This document shows positions 6 through 35,712 of a stretch of DNA of 64,000 nucleotides, piece by piece (the first letter of the stretch is position 1; each line of letters starts with the position of its first letter). Source of the stretch: an uncultured Azospirillum sp. (GTDB taxonomy: Bacteria; Pseudomonadota; Alphaproteobacteria; RF32; CAG-239); the NCBI GenBank assembly GCA_900539605.1, contig UQCS01000005.1:10564-74563 (forward strand). The letters run 5' to 3'. Position numbers and translations under genes: made by a program. Under the pieces are notes generated by a model, which saw only the letters and a program-made list of their open reading frames with translations, did not search any database and had not been told where the DNA came from.

Positions 6-1817
6 TTGGAATTTCGGGGAGCTTATATTCTCAATCAACAAGAAGCTGAGCAGTTGTCGAAAATCATTCTTACCGAAAAAATGACAGTTAACGCCGACAT
101 TGTCGGACAAAGTGCCGCCATCATTGCCAAACTGGCCGGTTTTGAAGTTCCGCCGCATGCCAAGGTTTTGGTGAGTGAACAAACATCAACTGACCGTGAC
201 AATCCTTTTGCACATGAAAAACTGTCACCGATTTTGGCTTTGTATAAAGCGGACAATTTCGAACAGGCAACCGATATGGCGTTAGAACTGGTCAATTTGG
301 GCGGAGTGGGACACACTTCGGTTTTGTATACCGACAGCCGTTCTCAGGACCGAATCAACTTTTTTGCCACCAAATTGCCGACCGGGCGTTTGTTAATTAA
401 TTCGCCGTCGTCCCAAGGCGGTATCGGCGATTTGTTCAATTTTAAGCTTGAACCTTCGCTGACGCTGGGATGCGGTTCGTGGGGCGGCAATTCCGTCAGC
501 GAAAACGTCGGCGTCAAACATTTGCTTAATTATAAAACCGTTGCCGAAAGGAGAGAAAATATGTTGTGGTTCCGGGTTCCTCCGAAAATTTATTTCAAAC
601 GCGGCGCCGTCGATCAGGCTTTGCGTGAGTTGGAAGGCAAAAAACGCGCTTTTATCGTCACGGACCGCTATCTGTTTGACTCCGGCATTGTCAACAATGT
701 GACCCGGGTGCTGGAAGAAATGGATATCGACTATCAGATTTTCTTTGACGTCAAACCCGATCCTACCTTGTCAACCATTGATGAAGCATTGGCGATGGTT
801 CGTCCTTACCAACCGGATGTGTTTATTGCTTTGGGCGGCGGTTCGCCGATGGACGCGGCTAAAATCATTTGGCTGATGTACGAACATCCGGAAGTCAATT
901 TTGAAGATATTTCAATGCGTTTTATGGATATTCGCAAACGGATATGTTCTATTCCCGAGTTGGGCAAAAAAGCGCAGTTGGTGGCGATTCCGACCACTTC
1001 GGGCACCGGATCGGAGGTGACGCCGTTTGCAATCATCACCGATGATGAAACCCATGTCAAATATGCAATTGCCGATTATGCCCTGACGCCGAATATGGCG
1101 ATTATTGATGCCAACTTTGTTGACAACATGCCGAAAGGGCTGACGGCAGCATCGGGTTTTGACGCTTTGGTCCATGCCGTGGAAGCTTATGTCTCGGTGA
1201 TGGCGACCAACTTTACCAACTCGGCGGCGTTGGAAGCAATCAAACAGGTTTTTCGCTATCTGCCCCGTGCTTATCAAAACGGTGCTGCAGATCCGGTGGC
1301 GCGTGAAAAAGTGCATCATGCGGCAACCATTGCCGGAATGGCTTTTGCCAACTCGTTTCTCGGCCTTTGCCACTCAATGGCGCATAAGCTGGGCGGTGCC
1401 TTCAATATTCCGCACGGGATTGCCAACGCTTTGTTGTTTAACCAGGTGATTCGTTACAATGCCACCGATTGTCCACGTAAACAGGCCATTTTCCCGCAAT
1501 ACAAATTTCCGAATGCCAAACAGCGTTATGGACAGATTGCCGGTAACCTGAAACTGGGCGGTAAAAATGATGATGAAAAACTGGAAAATCTGCTGGCTGC
1601 CGTTTCCAAACTGAAAGAAGAAATCGAAATTCCGCACTCAATCAAGGAGTGGGGAATTAAGGAAGAGGATTTCTACGCCAAGTTGGACGATATGGTTGAA
1701 AAGGCTTTTGATGACCAGTGCACCGGTGCCAACCCGGTTTATCCGCTGATGGAAGATATCCGCCGGATTTATATTGACGCTTACAACGGCGTTGATTATC
1801 AGCCGGAACCGAAATAG
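6..1817 (+). CDS. adhE: Bifunctional aldehyde/alcohol dehydrogenase AdhE, C-terminal portion (5' end lies left of the window)
   Basis: The frame is open to the window edge. It holds an ALDH-domain tail followed by an iron-type ADH domain (GGGSPMDAAK, TTSGTGSEVTPF, CHSMAHKLGGAFNIPHG). The stop is followed by a terminator hairpin. Confidence 0.9.
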   Translation: MEFRGAYILNQQEAEQLSKIILTEKMTVNADIVGQSAAIIAKLAGFEVPPHAKVLVSEQTSTDRDNPFAHEKLSPILALYKADNFEQATDMALELVNLGGVGHTSVLYTDSRSQDRINFFATKLPTGRLLINSPSSQGGIGDLFNFKLEPSLTLGCGSWGGNSVSENVGVKHLLNYKTVAERRENMLWFRVPPKIYFKRGAVDQALRELEGKKRAFIVTDRYLFDSGIVNNVTRVLEEMDIDYQIFFDVKPDPTLSTIDEALAMVRPYQPDVFIALGGGSPMDAAKIIWLMYEHPEVNFEDISMRFMDIRKRICSIPELGKKAQLVAIPTTSGTGSEVTPFAIITDDETHVKYAIADYALTPNMAIIDANFVDNMPKGLTAASGFDALVHAVEAYVSVMATNFTNSAALEAIKQVFRYLPRAYQNGAADPVAREKVHHAATIAGMAFANSFLGLCHSMAHKLGGAFNIPHGIANALLFNQVIRYNATDCPRKQAIFPQYKFPNAKQRYGQIAGNLKLGGKNDDEKLENLLAAVSKLKEEIEIPHSIKEWGIKEEDFYAKLDDMVEKAFDDQCTGANPVYPLMEDIRRIYIDAYNGVDYQPEPK

Positions 1818-1831
1818 GGAGCGGCTAAAGG

Positions 1832-1860
1832 AAAAGCCCCGGAAAACCCGGGGCTTTTTG
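1832..1860. terminator. Rho-independent terminator between convergent adhE and nfeD-like gene
   Basis: GC stem AGCCCCGG / CCGGGGCT with an AAAAC loop, followed by TTTTT on the + strand. The A-run upstream gives partial function on the - strand. Confidence 0.8.
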
Positions 1861-1893
1861 GGCAGTTTTTTCCTTGGGGACCGGAAGCAACTG

Positions 1894-2346
1894 TCAGTCG
1901 GTGCTTTGATATTTGACGGCTTTCAGGATAACGCCGTTTTCGACTCCGGTTATTTTAACCCGGTCTCCTTTTTTCAAACCGTCTTTACATTCAACAATCC
2001 AGACTGTATCGCCGACAATTGCCTTGGAACGGCCGTCCGAGGCGTCTTCTGCCAGCAAATAGGTTTTGCCGATATGCTGGCCGGCCATGTCGTTAAGGTA
2101 TTTGTACTTTTCGGCGCCGGTGCTGCGTTTGATGACCTTAGCGTAAACAAACCAGCCGGCAACGGCAAAGACAACGGAAAACGCACCGAAAATAACTGAT
2201 TGTTCAATTACGCCGAAGTCGTTGTAAATGGTAAGTATTCCGGTGGCAAATGCCGACAGCCCGAACCAAACCAGATAAACGCCGGGGACAAACACTTCCA
2301 GCAAGACCAACGCCAGCCCGAGTGAAAACCATTCCATATAATTCAT
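1894..2346 (-). CDS. NfeD-family membrane protein (short form, partner of the SPFH protein)
   Basis: Hydrophobic N-terminal helices plus a C-terminal OB-like NfeD tail (GDTVWIVECKDGLKKGDRVKITGVENGVILKV-like). It sits 12 nt downstream of the SPFH gene, the classical nfeD-SPFH operon. Confidence 0.8.
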   Translation of the reverse strand: MNYMEWFSLGLALVLLEVFVPGVYLVWFGLSAFATGILTIYNDFGVIEQSVIFGAFSVVFAVAGWFVYAKVIKRSTGAEKYKYLNDMAGQHIGKTYLLAEDASDGRSKAIVGDTVWIVECKDGLKKGDRVKITGVENGVILKAVKYQSTD

Positions 2347-2358
2347 GGTATTTCTCCT

Positions 2359-3285
2359 TTACTTGCGGTTGGTAGCAGTATTCTTTTCTTGCAGTACTTC
2401 TTTGGCAATCTCCGCAATTCCGGCAATTGATCCCATAACATTAGCCGTATCCATCGGCATCATTAGCAATTTCTGGTTGGGCGAAGTGACAATTCCCTGC
2501 AGGGCTTCGATGTATTTTTGCCCCAGAAAATAGTTGAGCGATTGTGGACTGCCGTCGGCAATGGCATCAGACACCATTTTGGCGGCGTTTGCTTCGGCGA
2601 GGGCCAGCCGTTCACGGGCTTCCGCTTCACGGAACGCCGCTTCTTTCTGAGCTTCGGCAGCCAAAATGACCGATTGTTTTTCACCTTCGGCTTTTAAAAT
2701 TTCGGCCTGACGAAATCCTTCGGCTTCAAGAATATTGGCGCGTTTGTCGCGCTCGGCTTTCATTTGGCGCGCCATCGAATTGATCAGATCGGCAGGCGGG
2801 GTGATGTCTTTGATCTCTACCCGGGTTACTTTGACGCCCCACGGTATGGTTGCTTCGTCGACCACCGCCAGCAGTTTGTGGTTAATGGCGTCGCGCTGAG
2901 ACAGCAGTTCGTCAATTTCCATACTGCCGATGACGGTACGAATGTTGGTCATAATTAGATTCAGGATGGCAACGTTCAGATCTTTGACCTGATAAGCGGC
3001 GTTGGCCGCCTGTTGGATCTGAAAGAATAAAACCCCGTCCACACGGACAGTTGCGTTGTCTTTGGTGATAACGTCTTGAGAAGGTACATCAAGAACCTGT
3101 TCCATCCGATTGATTTTTGCTCCGATTTTTTCGACGATCGGAATGATGATGTGCAGTCCCGGCGAAAGGGTGCGGGTAAAGCGGCCGAAACTTTCCACCG
3201 TATATTCGTATCCTTGCCGGACAATGACCACCGAAGTCAACAACAGAAAAAAGACGACAACGGCGAGAAATAATGCAAACTCCAT
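2359..3285 (-). CDS. SPFH/band-7 (stomatin/QmcA-like) membrane protein
   Basis: N-terminal TM helix, SPFH core ([24 protein letters not shown]) and an Ala/Glu-rich coiled-coil tail. Confidence 0.9.
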
Positions 3286-3767
3286 AATTTTCTCCTTAGT
3301 TAGTTATTTAGATCTCGTTGTCAGAATAACGGAAATCTCGTTTTCATACAACCGGCACCGAAAGTTATATACAACAATCGTGAATTTGCCGATTCTTTGA
3401 TAGAGGCGGCCCCCAAGTATGGAATAAGATCTTTTTTACGGTTTTGGGGTTTCAAAACGAGTAACAATTTTGCCTCAATCTTTTAATGCTGATTGCCAAA
3501 AATTTTTTAAATTATTTTATATTTCGTCAACTTGCCGCTCCGGAATATCGGACGTTTTGTTCGTAATTTCGGGAGGTTGTCCGGCAGAGGAGGAAAAAAC
3601 GCCGAATCGATGATGTCGTTTGTCAAATATTATGTCGGAAATTTGACGGAAAAGCAGGCGGTTCTTTGTGTAAAAGTTTTGTTAAAAGCAGTGCCCGGCG
3701 CAAAAATTATGTTGCCAAAACAGCCGGTTTTATATTACAATTTAACTAATAACAGGGGGAGAAGCAA

Positions 3768-5267
3768 ATGGACGTGGTGGCAGGAAAAGGAGGAAATTTC
3801 TTCGTTGTTAACGGTTCCGTCAGCAACACCATTCTCAATATGCTGTCTGAGATCTCTTATGAAGAGTTTGGAAAATACAACGCTTATTCGACAATGAAGA
3901 AGATTTCACGCCAAAGCCCGGCGGAATACGCTGCCAAAAACGGGTTGCGTCAGAATATTGTTGAAAACTTTTCCCGTCTTGAAGAAGTGATCGATTATCA
4001 CGCTACTCAGGATCTGATGTATTTTATTGAGTCTGAAGACGGCCGGGAACGTTCGGACAGTTATGACAACGATGTTGTTGTCAATCCTGCAAACTATAAC
4101 AACGGTTTTCTGCATGCCGCTCCGCGGGAAGTGTCGGGGCTGATTACCGATTCTTTTCAAATTCCGGAAGATTTGGTGCCGCGTTTGCTGAAAAGCGTCG
4201 GCATATCAATCAAAAGGGAAACCCTGTCACATTTCGTAAAATGGAATAATATTACCTACAAGGTTGACATTACACCCGCTCGTACTCAGAACTATGTCAG
4301 CATGTTCAACAACAAGTCAATCATCGTTGTTGAAAATTGCTATGTTTTTCAGTCTGATGATTGGAATATTGTCAAAAAAATCGAGCAGAAATTTATTAAA
4401 GAAAAAGTTCGGCGCAAAAAATCGTGGTTTTTAAAAGAAAAACCGGATGAAGTCCTGCTGGAAGATATTTTGCGCAAAATGTTCAAAGATAAGGCTCTGA
4501 TTCGCTATACTGCCTTGTATCGCGCTTATCGCGAAATTCGTAAAATTCGTCATGATTATGCCGGGATTTTTATTCACGAGTTTCATCACTTGCGCAATAA
4601 AGTTTTGGTTGAAAATCGCAGCCTGCATCCAAAGTCGCTGGCTTTGAATGCAGCGGATCTTTATAATATTCAGGTGGAAGACGAGCGAAGCGCGGCTTTA
4701 GCGGTAACGATTTTCCGTTTGGGACGTTACTGGAAAAATAAAAGCTGGAACGAGCTTTTGAGCAAAGAGCCGTGCTTCGAAGTATTAAAAGACCGTCCGC
4801 AGGAAGTACGCGAAAACTTGCTTAAAAATATGGAATTTGTGGTTAATCTGAAGCTCAAGCATTGGACGGAAAACGAACTTGAACGCCATTATCCGAAATT
4901 TGTCAGTAATCTTCCGCTGATTGAAGCGCGTAATTCGATTGCCAAAGGCGAAGACGCCGAACGACGCGAATACTTCCGCCAGCGTTCGGTTATGTACAGT
5001 TTTTATATTTATAATCCCGACAGCGGAAAGTTTGAACTGCGCAATCTCAGCCGCTATATTAAGATTGATATTCCGGTTGACGGTTTTGTGCAGGAGAATA
5101 TAATTGACAAAGCCCGTTACTACATTGATCGTAAAAAAGCAGCCAAACGCTTTTTGCTGGCTAAAGACGGCATCAGCGAAGCGCTGGTGAAAAAAGCGGC
5201 GGTTGTTTTCGATGCGCCGCGCCGCCTCGGAGCGCGCCGACGGTTGAACGAACCGGGTAAAAAATAA
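3768..5267 (+). CDS. Hypothetical 499-aa protein with an HExxH motif (putative zinc metallopeptidase, family unassigned)
   Basis: SD GGGGGAGAAG lies 4-5 nt upstream of the ATG, and there is an in-frame stop just upstream. HEFHH is at aa 270-274 (nt 4575-4589). No signal peptide or TM segment, and a basic C-terminal tail. I recognise no family. Confidence 0.6.
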   Translation: MDVVAGKGGNFFVVNGSVSNTILNMLSEISYEEFGKYNAYSTMKKISRQSPAEYAAKNGLRQNIVENFSRLEEVIDYHATQDLMYFIESEDGRERSDSYDNDVVVNPANYNNGFLHAAPREVSGLITDSFQIPEDLVPRLLKSVGISIKRETLSHFVKWNNITYKVDITPARTQNYVSMFNNKSIIVVENCYVFQSDDWNIVKKIEQKFIKEKVRRKKSWFLKEKPDEVLLEDILRKMFKDKALIRYTALYRAYREIRKIRHDYAGIFIHEFHHLRNKVLVENRSLHPKSLALNAADLYNIQVEDERSAALAVTIFRLGRYWKNKSWNELLSKEPCFEVLKDRPQEVRENLLKNMEFVVNLKLKHWTENELERHYPKFVSNLPLIEARNSIAKGEDAERREYFRQRSVMYSFYIYNPDSGKFELRNLSRYIKIDIPVDGFVQENIIDKARYYIDRKKAAKRFLLAKDGISEALVKKAAVVFDAPRRLGARRRLNEPGKK

Positions 5268-5286
5268 AAACACAAAGGAGAAAAAT

Positions 5287-5520
5287 ATGAAAACGTTACT
5301 CTATCTGATCGGGCTGGTTGCCGTTGGTTTGGCAATTGCATGGTTTGGTTTTGGCATTCATCCAAAAAGCGTTTATTACAGAATGGTCAATATGTTTGCT
5401 TCAACATCGGAAACAACTGCCGGTCATGCGCAAGACGTTAAAAATACCGGCAGTCGTTTTGCCGATGTAATCAAAAATAATTATAACGATCAGGATATGA
5501 CCCAGCCGATGGCTCATTAG
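5287..5520 (+). CDS. Small membrane-anchored protein (77 aa), probably co-transcribed with the HExxH protein
   Basis: SD AAAGGAGAAA upstream. One N-terminal TM helix (LLYLIGLVAVGLAIAWFGFGI). Gap of 19 nt after the preceding gene. Confidence 0.55.
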   Translation: MKTLLYLIGLVAVGLAIAWFGFGIHPKSVYYRMVNMFASTSETTAGHAQDVKNTGSRFADVIKNNYNDQDMTQPMAH

Positions 5521-5531
5521 AAAGATTCTTC

Positions 5532-5567
5532 AACGTAAACAAGCACCGAAAGGTACTTGTTTACGTT
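5532..5567 (+). terminator. Strong hairpin downstream of the small membrane protein (probable terminator, no clean T-run)
   Basis: 12-bp stem AACGTAAACAAG / CTTGTTTACGTT. Confidence 0.5.
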
Positions 5568-5614
5568 CTGACGGGGCCGATCGTCGCAGATTGACCCAAA
5601 ATCGTTGTCCTGGC

Positions 5615-5644
5615 TTGACAACTGCTTAATTCAAAGTGTATAAA
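5615..5644 (+). promoter_or_regulatory. Sigma70-like promoter upstream of rnhB
   Basis: TTGACA, 18-nt spacer, TATAAA, about 45 nt upstream of the rnhB ATG. Confidence 0.45.
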
Positions 5645-5689
5645 TAAAACAGCCTAGACTTAACAGAAAACTTAAATTTGATTTTATAA

Positions 5690-6316
5690 ATGCCTGATTT
5701 TTATTTTGAAAATGAATATGATTGTGAAGTGGCGGGGGTCGACGAAGCCGGGCGGGGACCGTGGGCCGGACCGGTGGTTGCCGGCGCAGTCGTGATTAAA
5801 AATCGCTGTTTATGCGACGAGCTGTTAAACGGTTTGGATGATTCGAAAAAGCTTTCGGCTGCCAAAAGAGAAAAACTCTATTTAAAACTTTTCGAGGAGC
5901 AGGCGGCGGGAAATCTTCAAATCGGTATCGGGGAAGCTTCGGTGCAGGAAATTGACGAGTTAAATATTTTGCAGGCAACTTTTTTAGCGATGTGCCGGGC
6001 GGTCGAAAAACTGCCTGTTTGTCCGTCTGCAGCGTTGATCGACGGCAATCGTACGCCGCCGGCGTTTCCTTGTAAATGCCGAACGGTTGTCAAAGGCGAT
6101 TCACTTTCGTTGTCAATTTCGGCCGCGTCGATTGTTGCAAAGGTATACCGGGACCGTTTGATGCGCGAGTTAGGGCAACGATATCCCGGATACGGTTTCG
6201 AAAAAAATGTCGGTTACGGTACCGCTACTCATATCGAAGGGTTGAAAAAACAAGGCGTTACGCCCGAGCATCGTCGCAGCTATAAACCGATAAAAGAATT
6301 TATGGAACAAAAGTGA
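5690..6316 (+). CDS. rnhB: Ribonuclease HII
   Basis: N-terminal GVDEAGRGPWAGPVV catalytic motif. Size and the DDSKKL motif are typical of RNase HII. Confidence 0.93.
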   Translation: MPDFYFENEYDCEVAGVDEAGRGPWAGPVVAGAVVIKNRCLCDELLNGLDDSKKLSAAKREKLYLKLFEEQAAGNLQIGIGEASVQEIDELNILQATFLAMCRAVEKLPVCPSAALIDGNRTPPAFPCKCRTVVKGDSLSLSISAASIVAKVYRDRLMRELGQRYPGYGFEKNVGYGTATHIEGLKKQGVTPEHRRSYKPIKEFMEQK

Positions 6317-6325
6317 ATTTTAGGG

Positions 6326-6354
6326 TTGACTTTTTGTCTAAAATGTGAGATAGT
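6326..6354 (+). promoter_or_regulatory. Sigma70-like promoter for the 90-aa ORF
   Basis: TTGACT, 17 nt, GATAGT. The first 20 nt are nearly identical to the promoter at 63646. Confidence 0.5.
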
Positions 6355-6383
6355 TACTTTTGTAATAACTAATTATTAAACTT

Positions 6384-6656
6384 ATGAATATGAATAAAGC
6401 AACCCGTAACGGAAATGGAAATTCTCGTCTCGCAGAACAGTTAGGAATAATCAGAGGTAAGAACACCGGTAAAAAAGCCGCTTACCTCAAAGGTCACGAT
6501 CTCATGCCCGAGGTGCTGCCCGAGCTCTTCAAGTGTAACAACCTGGAACTCGCCGCTCTCTACCTCCACAAGTTCGAAACCGTTCCGCTGGAAGTCGCTG
6601 CTGCCGCCTGCAAGGCCGGCCGTGGTTCTCTCCTTCGAGGCTTAGCCGTTGCGTAG
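6384..6656 (+). CDS. Small hypothetical protein (90 aa) with its own promoter and tandem terminators
   Basis: ORF bracketed by a TTGACT promoter and two hairpin terminators. The 3' half uses C-ending codons (CTC, TTC, AAG, TAC, CAC, GCC) as the rpsD gene does. I recognise no family. Confidence 0.6.
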   Translation: MNMNKATRNGNGNSRLAEQLGIIRGKNTGKKAAYLKGHDLMPEVLPELFKCNNLELAALYLHKFETVPLEVAAAACKAGRGSLLRGLAVA

Positions 6657-6660
6657 CTTC

Positions 6661-6727
6661 ACTAAAAAGAACTGTTCTTTTTAGTTCTTTTATAAGCTGT
6701 TCGTCTCAGACGAGCAGCTTTTTTTGT
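6661..6727 (+). terminator. Two tandem rho-independent terminators
   Basis: Hairpin 1 has an 11-bp AT-rich stem (6661-6685) followed by TCTTTT. Hairpin 2 has a 12-bp stem AAGCTGTTCGTC / GACGAGCAGCTT followed by TTTTTTT. Confidence 0.8.
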
Positions 6728-6968
6728 TTAAATCTTTTGCTGACCGAACCGTCAGTGGAAAAAATTAAGCCAGAATTTTTGGCAATTATGGCTTTTATGG
6801 ATCTCCGGACCTGTTCTTAAAATTCTCACAGTGCCAGAAGCTGTTGCTTTTGCGCCTAAAATGAAAAACTAGCCAAAAAATATTTTCGATCAGTTTTTGT
6901 TAATAATTTTATAACTTCTTTTTGTCATACTGCCTCCATTGTCAAATGACCATAATGAAGTGAAATAA

Positions 6969-8063
<1,095 letters not shown>

Positions 8064-8082
8064 GCCGGATTTTATTTGTAAG

Positions 8083-21096: not shown

Positions 21097-21100
21097 TTAA

Positions 21101-21128
21101 AAAATCCTCCTTCGGGAGGTTTTTTTTA
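21101..21128 (+). terminator. Rho-independent terminator after tRNA-His
   Basis: CCTCC-TTCG-GGAGG hairpin followed by TTTTTTTT. Confidence 0.85.
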
Positions 21129-21308
21129 TGGTGGAGCGATCTATAAACACATTAAAAAAATGACTGATAAATATCCGAGAAATCTTAATTTATATTCCTG
21201 CAAAAAATGAAATCGTCAAAAAAAGTTTTTTTGTCTAGAGTTTGACGCGTATATCGGATATATTGATCAAATCAATTTATTTTTTTGCAAATTAAAAACA
21301 CCTATTAT

Positions 21309-23011: not shown

Positions 23012-23811
23012 CTAATTGCGTTTTAAAGATATCATCTCCAGGTGGCGGTTATTCAAAAATTGTTCATAGAGATCTTTTTCAGTTAACAACGGTTTATTGC
23101 GGCTGGTCTCAATTCCGTGAAGCTTGCCGTCTTTTCCGATCTCCAATCCTTCCTGCTGCAGTTCTTCGGCAAACTTTTGCAAAAACTTGTCACCGTTGGG
23201 AACCTTCTCGGCGGTTTGTTGTTTTTTGATCACGATATCTCTGATCAGCATCTTATCAATAAGCAGAGAAGACTGAAACCGTGTCTCCGGTTTGTCAACC
23301 GCCAGTCCTTTGTGGCGGCAGCGGGCATGATGAACCTGGTCAATTTCGGCATCGCTGATTTTACGGTCGCCCTGAAAACGCATTTGCGACAGGTTGCCGT
23401 GTTCGTCAATCGCAAAACTGACGTTATAGGAACCGAAGTCATATCCATGGACCTTTGAGGCGGTGGTATGATCCTTTTTATCCAGCAAAATGCCCGAAAC
23501 TTTGAGGGCTTCTTCTTTGCTTAGGCCTGTCAGACTGAAAACTTCAATTAATTCGGATGGGGTAATACAGCCGTTGGAATCGATTTTTTGGAGATAAGTA
23601 TCAAGAAAACGGTCACACTTCTCCTCACCGGCGTTAATCTCGGTGAGAGCCAAGGCCAATTTTTGGGGCTGAAATATGCTTTGGGTGCCGTCTGCCGGTC
23701 GTGGGAAGAACTATGTTCCTGGGCGTTTACATTGGCGGATGAGAGTACGGCAACGCTTGTAACTAATATCAGAGCACGCCACTTTTGTGTCAGTTTGTCT
23801 TTGAGCTTCAT
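23012..23811 (-). pseudogene. Secreted hypothetical protein split by a frameshift (or sequencing error)
   Basis: The signal-peptide ORF (23548-23811, MKLKDKLTQKWRALILVTSVAVLSSANVNAQ) and the 215-aa body ORF (23012-23659) overlap in different frames. One extra nucleotide between 23548 and 23710 would fuse them, for example in the T5G4 run at 23660-23668. Confidence 0.55.
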
Positions 23812-23942
23812 CGGCGTCTTCCTTATATGATAAATAATGAATAATATTATAACATTTTTGATAAGAGGTCAAATAATATTGTTTGGGAGAAGAGAGAAAA
23901 CGATTATAGGACTGTTTGACCGCCTCGGGCCCTTCCGGGTTC

Positions 23943-23970
23943 GATCCCCTTAATATTGATTATGCGGAAA
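23943..23970 (-). other. dif-like 28-mer (conserved XerC-arm and spacer, degenerate XerD arm), copy 1
   Basis: The - strand reads TTTCCGCATAA-TCAATA-TTAAGGGGATC. It shares the 16-mer CGCATAATCAATATTA with the candidate dif at 35689-35704. Confidence 0.45.
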
Positions 23971-23973
23971 GTT

Positions 23974-23992
23974 TGGAGCGGGTAACGGGAAT
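23974..23992 (-). pseudogene. Orphan 3' fragment of tRNA-Gly (T-loop to CCA, 19 nt)
   Basis: ATTCCCGTTACCCGCTCCA is identical to the 3' end of the intact tRNA-Gly. The preceding sequence cannot form the rest of a tRNA. Confidence 0.8.
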
Positions 23993-24097
23993 ACGCGGCG
24001 CTGCCGCTCGCTGCTCGGTTGCCGGCTTCGCCGAAAGCGGTTGTCACCGCTTTGGCTCAGACTGCCAACCTACGCCCGTCGTTGTCAAACAGTTCAC

Positions 24098-24182
24098 AGG
24101 ACTGTTTGACTGTCTCCGGCCCTTTCGGGTTCGATTCTCTTAATATTGATTATGCGGAAAGTTTGGAGCGGGTAACGGGAAT
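24098..24182. repeat. 85-bp direct repeat, copy 2 (abuts and overlaps the 3' end of the intact tRNA-Gly)
   Basis: See copy 1. A 9-bp inverted repeat GTCAAACAG/CTGTTTGAC straddles its left boundary (24084-24110). Confidence 0.9.
24133..24160 (-). other. dif-like 28-mer, copy 2, 3 nt downstream of the tRNA-Gly CCA end
   Basis: The - strand reads TTTCCGCATAA-TCAATA-TTAAGAGAATC, with the same 16-mer as the candidate dif. Confidence 0.45.
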
Positions 24183-24237
24183 CGAACCCGCATTAAAAGC
24201 TTGGGAAGCTCTCATTCTACCATTGAATTATACCCGC
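24164..24237 (-). tRNA. tRNA-Gly (anticodon CCC), CCA encoded
   Basis: Hand fold of the reverse complement: acceptor GCGGGTA/TACCCGC, anticodon stem AGAGC/GCTTT with loop TTCCCAA, T-arm GCGGG-TTCGATT-CCCGT, discriminator T, CCA. Confidence 0.92.
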
Positions 24238-35684: not shown

Positions 35685-35712
35685 TTGTCGCATAATCAAT
35701 ATTATGTATAGT
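35685..35712 (+). other. Candidate chromosome dimer resolution site dif (XerC/XerD)
   Basis: TTGTCGCATAA-TCAATA-TTATGTATAGT matches 19 of 28 positions of E. coli dif GGTGCGCATAATGTATATTATGTTAAAT, including GCATAA-N6-TTATGT. It sits in the gap between convergent genes where CDS strand bias flips. Confidence 0.6.

Follow-up and report, generated by a model that had tools for sequence, protein, structure and literature searches.

Within the 64,000-nucleotide stretch of DNA from an uncultured Azospirillum sp. analyzed here (hereafter, the window), a tRNA-Gly(CCC) gene is followed by two sites that look like dif and share an exact 16-mer with a candidate chromosomal dif 11.5 kb away. A sequence-only reading had taken these two sites for attachment sites worked by Xer, of the kind known from Xer-exploiting integrative elements (IMEX) or plasmid pdif modules, with the host Xer system as recombinase. 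We asked whether the sites beside the tRNA gene are Xer sites, and what else might have produced the structure in which they lie.

A tRNA-Gly gene followed by a 190-bp direct repeat

The locus reads on the minus strand and comprises the following features.

24164-24237 (-): intact tRNA-Gly(CCC) gene (ARAGORN; Rfam tRNA, 67.7 bits)
24098-24182 (-): proximal 85-nt repeat, attL-like (repeat search and strain comparison)
24133-24160 (-): proximal dif-like 28-mer, TTTCCGCATAA-TCAATA-TTAAGAGAATC
23993-24097 (-): insert X, 105 nt, between the repeats
23974-23992 (-): displaced 3' fragment of tRNA-Gly, 19 nt, which opens the distal repeat
23943-23970 (-): distal dif-like 28-mer, TTTCCGCATAA-TCAATA-TTAAGGGGATC
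23908-23992 (-): distal 85-nt repeat, attR-like

A repeat search returned a direct repeat of 96 nt with 89% identity and a spacing of 190 bp, and the limits of its 85-nt core were set by comparison with other strains. Each core is made of 19 nt of tRNA 3' end and 66 nt of flank, the latter starting with a linker AAC, continuing with the dif-like stretch of 28 nt, and closing with 35 nt that include a CCC-GNRA-GGG hairpin; the proximal copy ends in GTCAAACAGTCCT. The left end of the proximal repeat is formed by the last 19 nt of the tRNA itself (24164-24182, from A58 of the T-loop to CCA), and the displaced fragment (ATTCCCGT...CCA) is identical to this tRNA-Gly 3' end over its 19 nt. Each 28-mer begins 3 nt past a ...GCTCCA end, and the repeat as a whole starts 22 nt to the left of the dif-like site and runs 35 nt to its right. 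The two dif-like sites are a single 28-nt sequence that was copied along with the 190-bp repeat, and not independent Xer sites.

The two copies in the window are identical over their first 44 nt and then show 6 differences, five of which are an A in the proximal and a G in the distal copy. The right half of the distal copy equals the single-copy allele found in another strain (contig L053) save at repeat position 66, where a C stands for a G. The distal repeat continues into chromosomal flank and the proximal repeat into X, which contains no ORF and has a GC content of 63.8%, versus 43.6% in its neighbourhood. A search of the window and of all loci retrieved gave no further copy of X, nor a module like this one after tRNA-His or tRNA-Leu.

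Some smaller elements were observed in the same region. An inverted copy of the tRNA T-arm lies in the hairpin region (CGGGTTCGATTC / GAATCGAACCCG, 24126-24137 / 24179-24190), the two parts being 41 nt apart and enclosing the dif-like site. A 9-bp hairpin (GTCAAACAG / CTGTTTGAC) spans the junction between repeat and insert at 24084-24110. An AT-rich motif was considered as an IHF site; by eye, it matched just the WATCAA half of the IHF consensus, and a complete site was rejected.

The locus is a probable remnant of a tRNA-targeted element

When islands integrate into tRNA genes, the tRNA is regenerated and a 3' fragment of it is left displaced; crossovers occur at the anticodon loop, at the T-loop, or at the T/acceptor junction (PMC4383910). 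Here, a regenerated tRNA is followed downstream by a 3' fragment in the same orientation, and the boundary of this fragment at A58 in the T-loop falls on one of these subsites. The fixed T-loop boundary, the regenerated tRNA, the displaced fragment and the foreign composition of the insert are the features by which integration into a tRNA gene through a tyrosine integrase is recognized (PMC4383910), and together they led us to read the locus as a gene-less remnant. We give an even chance to the view that 23908-24237 comprises tRNA-Gly(CCC) and the scar of an integrative element, arranged as attL, remnant, and attR.

Under this scenario, the attachment site of the element would have been made of the tRNA 3' end and homologous downstream sequence, and would have recombined in the T-loop or at the acceptor junction. 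Integration would have been driven by a tyrosine integrase that the locus no longer encodes, such that the proximal repeat completes the tRNA and the distal one begins with the displaced fragment. The genes of the element would then have been lost, leaving a remnant similar to a CIME, and the copy number would now shift in 190-bp steps through recombination between the 85-bp repeats. CIMEs are decayed elements in which attL and attR are kept and the genes are lost (PMC5704250); at our locus, attL-like and attR-like repeats are kept, and integration and transfer genes are absent. Because the 105-bp interval lacks an integrase, the locus qualifies as a remnant only and not as an island.

The differences between the two copies can be accommodated in the same scheme. 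If the incoming circle had a homologous but diverged right arm and crossed over somewhere in the identical 44 nt, the resulting B-O-P' and P-O-B' junctions would have a diverged right half in the proximal copy and an L053-like right half in the distal copy, which is the arrangement found. These 44 nt hold both the T-loop and the dif-like spacer, and thus the junction pattern alone cannot name the recombinase.

A second species provided another view of the module. In another gut alphaproteobacterium (contigs L183 and L184-L189), tRNA-Gly(CCC) is followed, after approximately 120-140 nt, by a copy of the 3'-terminal 19 nt of that species' own tRNA (ATTCCCGTCACCTGCTCCA). In L183/L184, the displaced fragment has the same T-loop start as in the window, and the segment after the tRNA can be aligned between the two species (CACAATCAAGGGAAnCGAACCCGC in the related species versus CATAATCAATATTAAGGGGATCGAACCCGG in the window). 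A dif-like motif is absent from the tRNA-Gly module of L183 and L184-L189. In relatives with 67-75% PpiD identity, either tRNA-Gly was not beside ppiD or the contigs ended too early.

Further observations were made on tRNA-Gly genes elsewhere. In L184-L189 (about 600-8064), tailed-phage genes for the large and small terminase and a gene for a glucosyltransferase (PF14264 family) lie directly upstream of the module-bearing tRNA-Gly, on the side where a prophage that had integrated at this tRNA would not be expected. In the genome collection, the tRNA-Gly 3' end was found duplicated about 90-130 nt past the intact gene in L109, L155, L079, and L098. The hosts are unrelated Gammaproteobacteria and candidate-phyla genomes, and such scars seem common.

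Comparison with Islander-type tRNA elements brings out both sides of the argument. The window shares with them the intact tRNA, the direct 3' fragment downstream, the start at a crossover subsite, the foreign DNA, and possible tandem copies (PMC4383910, PMC5704250). Unlike Islander elements and CIMEs, its interval is 105 bp long and gene-less, its repeat measures 85 bp, a mini-module exists in a second species, and there is no known parent element. For an att core, an identity block of 85 bp that extends 66 nt past the tRNA is unusually long. A small module present in two species and matching in each the acceptor stem of its own tRNA is odd for passive decay, and its persistence in both hints at ongoing mobility or gene conversion. 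Searches of IMG/VR, JGI metagenomes, phages, and plasmids returned no integrase-bearing full-length element with the flank attachment site.

Copy number differs between assemblies in steps of 190 bp

Assemblies showed the length steps of 190 bp that had been proposed as a check on the locus. Contig L056 carries two identical 85-nt copies. Contig L053 carries one copy and no X and is 99.99% identical to L056 across 13.7 kb; this one-copy allele comes from one low-coverage contig only (SPAdes, 5x), in which a perfect 85-nt repeat may have been collapsed. Scaffold L198 contains two copies, then an N gap, then a further partial copy, that is, possibly three copies or more. The spacing between copies was exactly 190 bp in every multi-copy contig, and copies were more alike within a strain than between strains. 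In about 20 contigs from three lineages, no element longer than 105 bp was found between or at the flank sites. In contigs that span both the flank sites and the inverted dif, the 11.5 kb between them was not inverted.

A possibility was that the structure is a plain tandem duplication, in which slippage or unequal crossing-over copied 190 bp and RecA-type recombination then alters the copy number, with no recombinase or element involved. The constant spacing agrees with this, the greater likeness of copies within a strain suggests concerted evolution, and a repeat of 85 bp lends itself well to homologous recombination. Two features fit poorly: X has 64% GC in a context of 44%, and the same T-loop boundary is found in a second species whose tRNA has a different acceptor sequence. 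Moreover, since the single-copy allele of L053 is devoid of X, X appears as inserted DNA rather than as a duplicated neighbour. All in all, we hold a duplication of this kind to be unlikely.

Other variation was noticed near the tRNA-Gly locus. At 23012-23811 (-), the window has a 213-aa ORF and, overlapping it, an 87-aa ORF with a signal peptide, in place of which L053, L056, and L206 have a single 266-aa gene. The A-run at about 23657-23661 counts five A in the window lineage versus six in the others, which points to a frameshift or to phase variation. A variable cargo spot lies by tRNA-His, between this gene and a Thi4-like gene (window 21097-21284). The window has no cargo at this spot, which is occupied by a PDDEXK_4 nuclease gene in L053 (3290-4925) and L056, and by PDDEXK_4, an AbiEi/AbiEii toxin-antitoxin pair, and another gene in L206 (15703-20281) and L207.

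The chromosomal dif is used by an integrase-less microvirus

The site with which the tRNA flank shares its 16-mer had been proposed as dif from its sequence, and this proposal proved right.

35685-35712 (+): chromosomal dif, TTGTCGCATAA TCAATA TTATGTATAGT (GC skew and prophage occupancy)

The sign of GC skew turns from positive to negative at about 35-36 kb; this switch, the mark of a replication terminus, puts the peak of cumulative skew at the dif site. In addition, human-gut metagenome contigs that match the window at 100% identity leave it exactly after 35712 and enter a Microviridae genome, in which replication initiator (PF23343) and major capsid (PF02305) genes are present. The right junction, ...ATGACTCATAA TCAATA TTATGTATAGT, is found in contigs that approach from the opposite direction, and in these the window resumes at 35691. 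The attL of the prophage is a full dif, and its attR is ATGACTCATAA TCAATA TTATGTATAGT. In otherwise 100% identical contigs, dif is either empty or occupied by the prophage; besides the window, the stretches concerned are as follows.

L001, 18792-20759: dif region
L004, 11880-12103: dif region
L194, 13808-18061: dif region

As in the window, dif is empty in contigs L003 and L193, and contig L196 ends exactly at the end of dif. The closest free virus is Bajarodmic virus 140 (PQ006236.1), with a capsid protein 83.7% identical to that of the prophage; its circular genome has an attP-like sequence, AAGACTCATAA TGCATA TTATGTATAGT, in non-coding DNA. Among the window genes checked, none codes for an integrase or a Xer protein, in line with the earlier remark that no tyrosine integrase lies near the tRNA. 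Integration at dif without an integrase has been described for other microviruses (PMC3091885, PMC7062461). Thus, 35685-35712 is a genuine dif, and it is used by an integrase-less Microviridae phage, that is, an IMEX. Separately, ERZ1755352 NODE_115 (L192 beyond about 18030) looks like an assembly chimera that passes from the microvirus to a GC-rich region with PadR genes; where L192 switches to that region, other contigs go on with phage sequence.

The spacer of dif is not the same in all lineages. In the sister lineage L206/L207, which is 93.5% identical to the window, dif reads TTGTCGCATAA TGTACG TTATGTATAGT. Between TCAATA in the window (35696-35701) and TGTACG in L206/L207 (about 1077-1082), 4 of the 6 positions differ and both 11-bp arms are unchanged; just past dif, the identity of the two falls to about 76%. 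The flank sites of the sister lineage retain the TCAATA spacer. A change of spacer between constant arms may reflect turnover driven by Xer-exploiting phages. Spacers vary in phage attP and host dif alike (TCAATA, TGCATA, and TGTACG), which makes a link between dif and the flank spacer through microvirus traffic conceivable.

The likeness of the flank to dif rests on one lineage's spacer

We recomputed the resemblance on which the Xer interpretation had been founded, and its positions and counts were confirmed. The window contains the 16-mer CGCATAATCAATATTA at three places only, 23951-23966(-), 24141-24156(-), and 35689-35704(+), and the 28-mers beside the tRNA match dif at 9 of 11 positions in the XerC arm, 6 of 6 in the spacer, and 5 of 11 in the XerD arm. 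Allowing up to 2 mismatches, there were still 3 matches in the window versus 0.05 expected from shuffles. To this extent, the claim that a 16-nt identity exceeds chance is borne out. Without the spacer, the likeness of the tRNA-side sites is reduced to the arms-only pattern CGCATAA-N6-TTA, for which chance alone predicts 0.26 occurrences per window, and hence the excess significance comes entirely from the shared spacer. The dif spacer of the sister lineage being TGTACG, the identity over 16 nt is peculiar to the window lineage. With this lineage-specific spacer allowed for, we estimate at about 1% the probability that an exact 16-mer match to a dif 11.5 kb away arises by chance, and we count this oddity against the remnant reading. 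The XerC-like arm of the flank was itself polymorphic, with three alleles among strains and copies (CCGCATAA, CTGCATAA, and CCACATAA).

One objection foreseen for this resemblance was that the 16-mer might be a dispersed repeat. Searches of IMG/VR and JGI metagenomes indicated that it is not. In IMG/VR, the 16-mer gave 47 matches, located in unrelated coding sequence or in the dif-like sites of other organisms, and none extended into the flank version; the junctions of the 105-bp insert, the flank 27-mer, and the prophage attP gave 0 matches each. A flank 21-mer gave 3 matches in JGI metagenomes, two of them chance matches in coding sequence and the third in L181 (ERZ778496 NODE-20232). L181 was rejected as a carrier of the flank site, being a probable assembly chimera of two species: a glucosyltransferase gene from a GC-richer species is joined to the module of the window species via 57 nt of identical tRNA, and the acceptor strands are mismatched (GCAGGTG versus TACCCGC). 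The last 19 nt of the tRNA occur in at least 120 loci of the genome collection, and no dif-like flank was seen among the matches listed, which do not include the window species. A blastn search of phages and plasmids with the hairpin region and insert (23993-24163) returned no match.

Could the flank sites nevertheless be pseudo-dif sites? XerC and XerD might bind their strong XerC and weak XerD arms and excise or re-insert the 190-bp unit, or a phage or IMEX with a TCAATA spacer might use them as a secondary attachment site. Such a view draws on the match of XerC arm and spacer to what is now a validated dif, on the 190-bp steps in assemblies, and on the presence, in the window lineage, of an active Xer-exploiting Microviridae prophage with a TCAATA spacer. 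The differences between copies also switch sides of the spacer, all 6 lying to its right in the window and the only one in L197 to its left. Finally, a gokushovirus dif motif with variable spacer and XerD arm has been documented (PMC7062461).

The structure of the repeat is hard to reconcile with this. A crossover in the spacer leaves unexplained the 22 nt by which the 85-bp repeat extends leftward, as far as the T-loop; a repeat that starts inside the T-loop is a signature of the sites of tRNA-targeted integrases and not of a crossover in a 6-bp Xer spacer. Nor is the duplication confined to the site, as it covers 85 bp. The flank motif is kept in the sister lineage, and in the related species a homologous module, with the same tRNA-fragment layout, is devoid of any dif-like motif. 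Full strand exchange requires a spacer equal to that of host dif; the flank spacer matches it in the window lineage and fails to track it in L206/L207, where dif changed at 4 of 6 positions and the flank did not, and the XerC-like arm is mutated at normally conserved positions (GCATAA to ACATAA). No phage or island, and no mobile element of any sort, was found at the sites in the roughly 20 contigs or in the viral, phage, and plasmid searches; no viral or metagenomic contig has the flank version of the site, the probable chimera L181 apart; and the contigs spanning flank and dif show no inversion between the two.

The known Xer-exploiting systems are matched in part. Like CTXphi, TLC, VGJ, the gonococcal island, and gokushovirus or other microvirus prophages, the flank site combines a good XerC arm with a degenerate XerD arm in an 11-6-11 layout, its spacer equals that of host dif in the window lineage, and a real microvirus IMEX sits at dif 11.5 kb away (PMC7062461, PMC3091885). 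Unlike in these systems, the site is not at dif, the repeat far exceeds 28 bp, no element lies between the copies, and flank and host dif differ in spacer in the sister lineage. With a degenerate arm in both flank copies, a full dif is kept at neither junction.

The pdif modules of Acinetobacter plasmids have inversely oriented sites (XerC/D then XerD/C) and carry genes. The window resembles them in having a short segment bounded by dif-like sites away from chromosomal dif. It departs from them in its chromosomal location, its cargo of 105 non-coding bases, and the orientation of its sites, both of which are on the minus strand, direct to one another and inverted relative to dif at 35685-35712.

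On this evidence, the proposal of IMEX or pdif attachment sites worked by host Xer is not supported. Involvement of Xer at tRNA-Gly appears neither needed nor supported, and we judge a Xer module at this place decidedly unlikely. We regard the likeness of the flank to dif as largely coincidental, or at most as a by-product of phage-driven turnover of the dif spacer, and not as evidence that Xer built the structure.

Two further readings were weighed. The 190-bp unit could be a living, gene-less mini-element that enters and leaves the tail of tRNA-Gly, mobilized in trans by host XerC/XerD at its half-degenerate dif-like core or by an unlinked integrase, or else the flank site could be a secondary landing pad or decoy for microviruses with TCAATA as attP spacer; this we find more doubtful still. 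Least probable of all, and very improbable indeed, is a functional RNA or transcription module in which the hairpin and tRNA-like tail are co-transcribed as a processing signal, terminator, or small RNA: the CGAACCCG-hairpin segment can be aligned across two species, the loop variants GGAA, GAAA, and GAGA are all GNRA on a CCC/GGG stem, and RNAalifold gave a few pairs with changes on both sides, but there is no Rfam family besides tRNA, the consensus fold is weak (-15 kcal/mol for four sequences from two clades), no terminator-like site lies downstream of the tRNA on the tRNA strand, and the second unit is missing in one assembly. Strain differences in X break its small predicted hairpins, which makes X unlike a constrained RNA. 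We also considered whether the unit might contain another, degenerate tRNA or a gene of the tmRNA type, and discarded the idea, as it had no Rfam support at permissive thresholds.

Implications

The remnant of a tRNA-targeted element thus remains the reading under which we place this locus: it is best filed as another example of decayed tRNA-integrated elements. It is also a cautionary case, in which a striking 16-nt identity to dif, located inside a classical tRNA-integration scar, hinges on the dif spacer of one lineage. Should the mini-module prove mobile, few known integrative elements would be smaller. If the flank were a landing pad or decoy, this would matter most in lineages whose dif spacer has changed. 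Of the two by-products of greater interest, one is an uncultured human-gut alphaproteobacterium with a validated dif that is occupied by a microvirus in some strains, and the other concerns the dif spacer. The change of dif spacer from lineage to lineage and the differing attP spacers of related phages fit a phage-host sparring over the Xer spacer.
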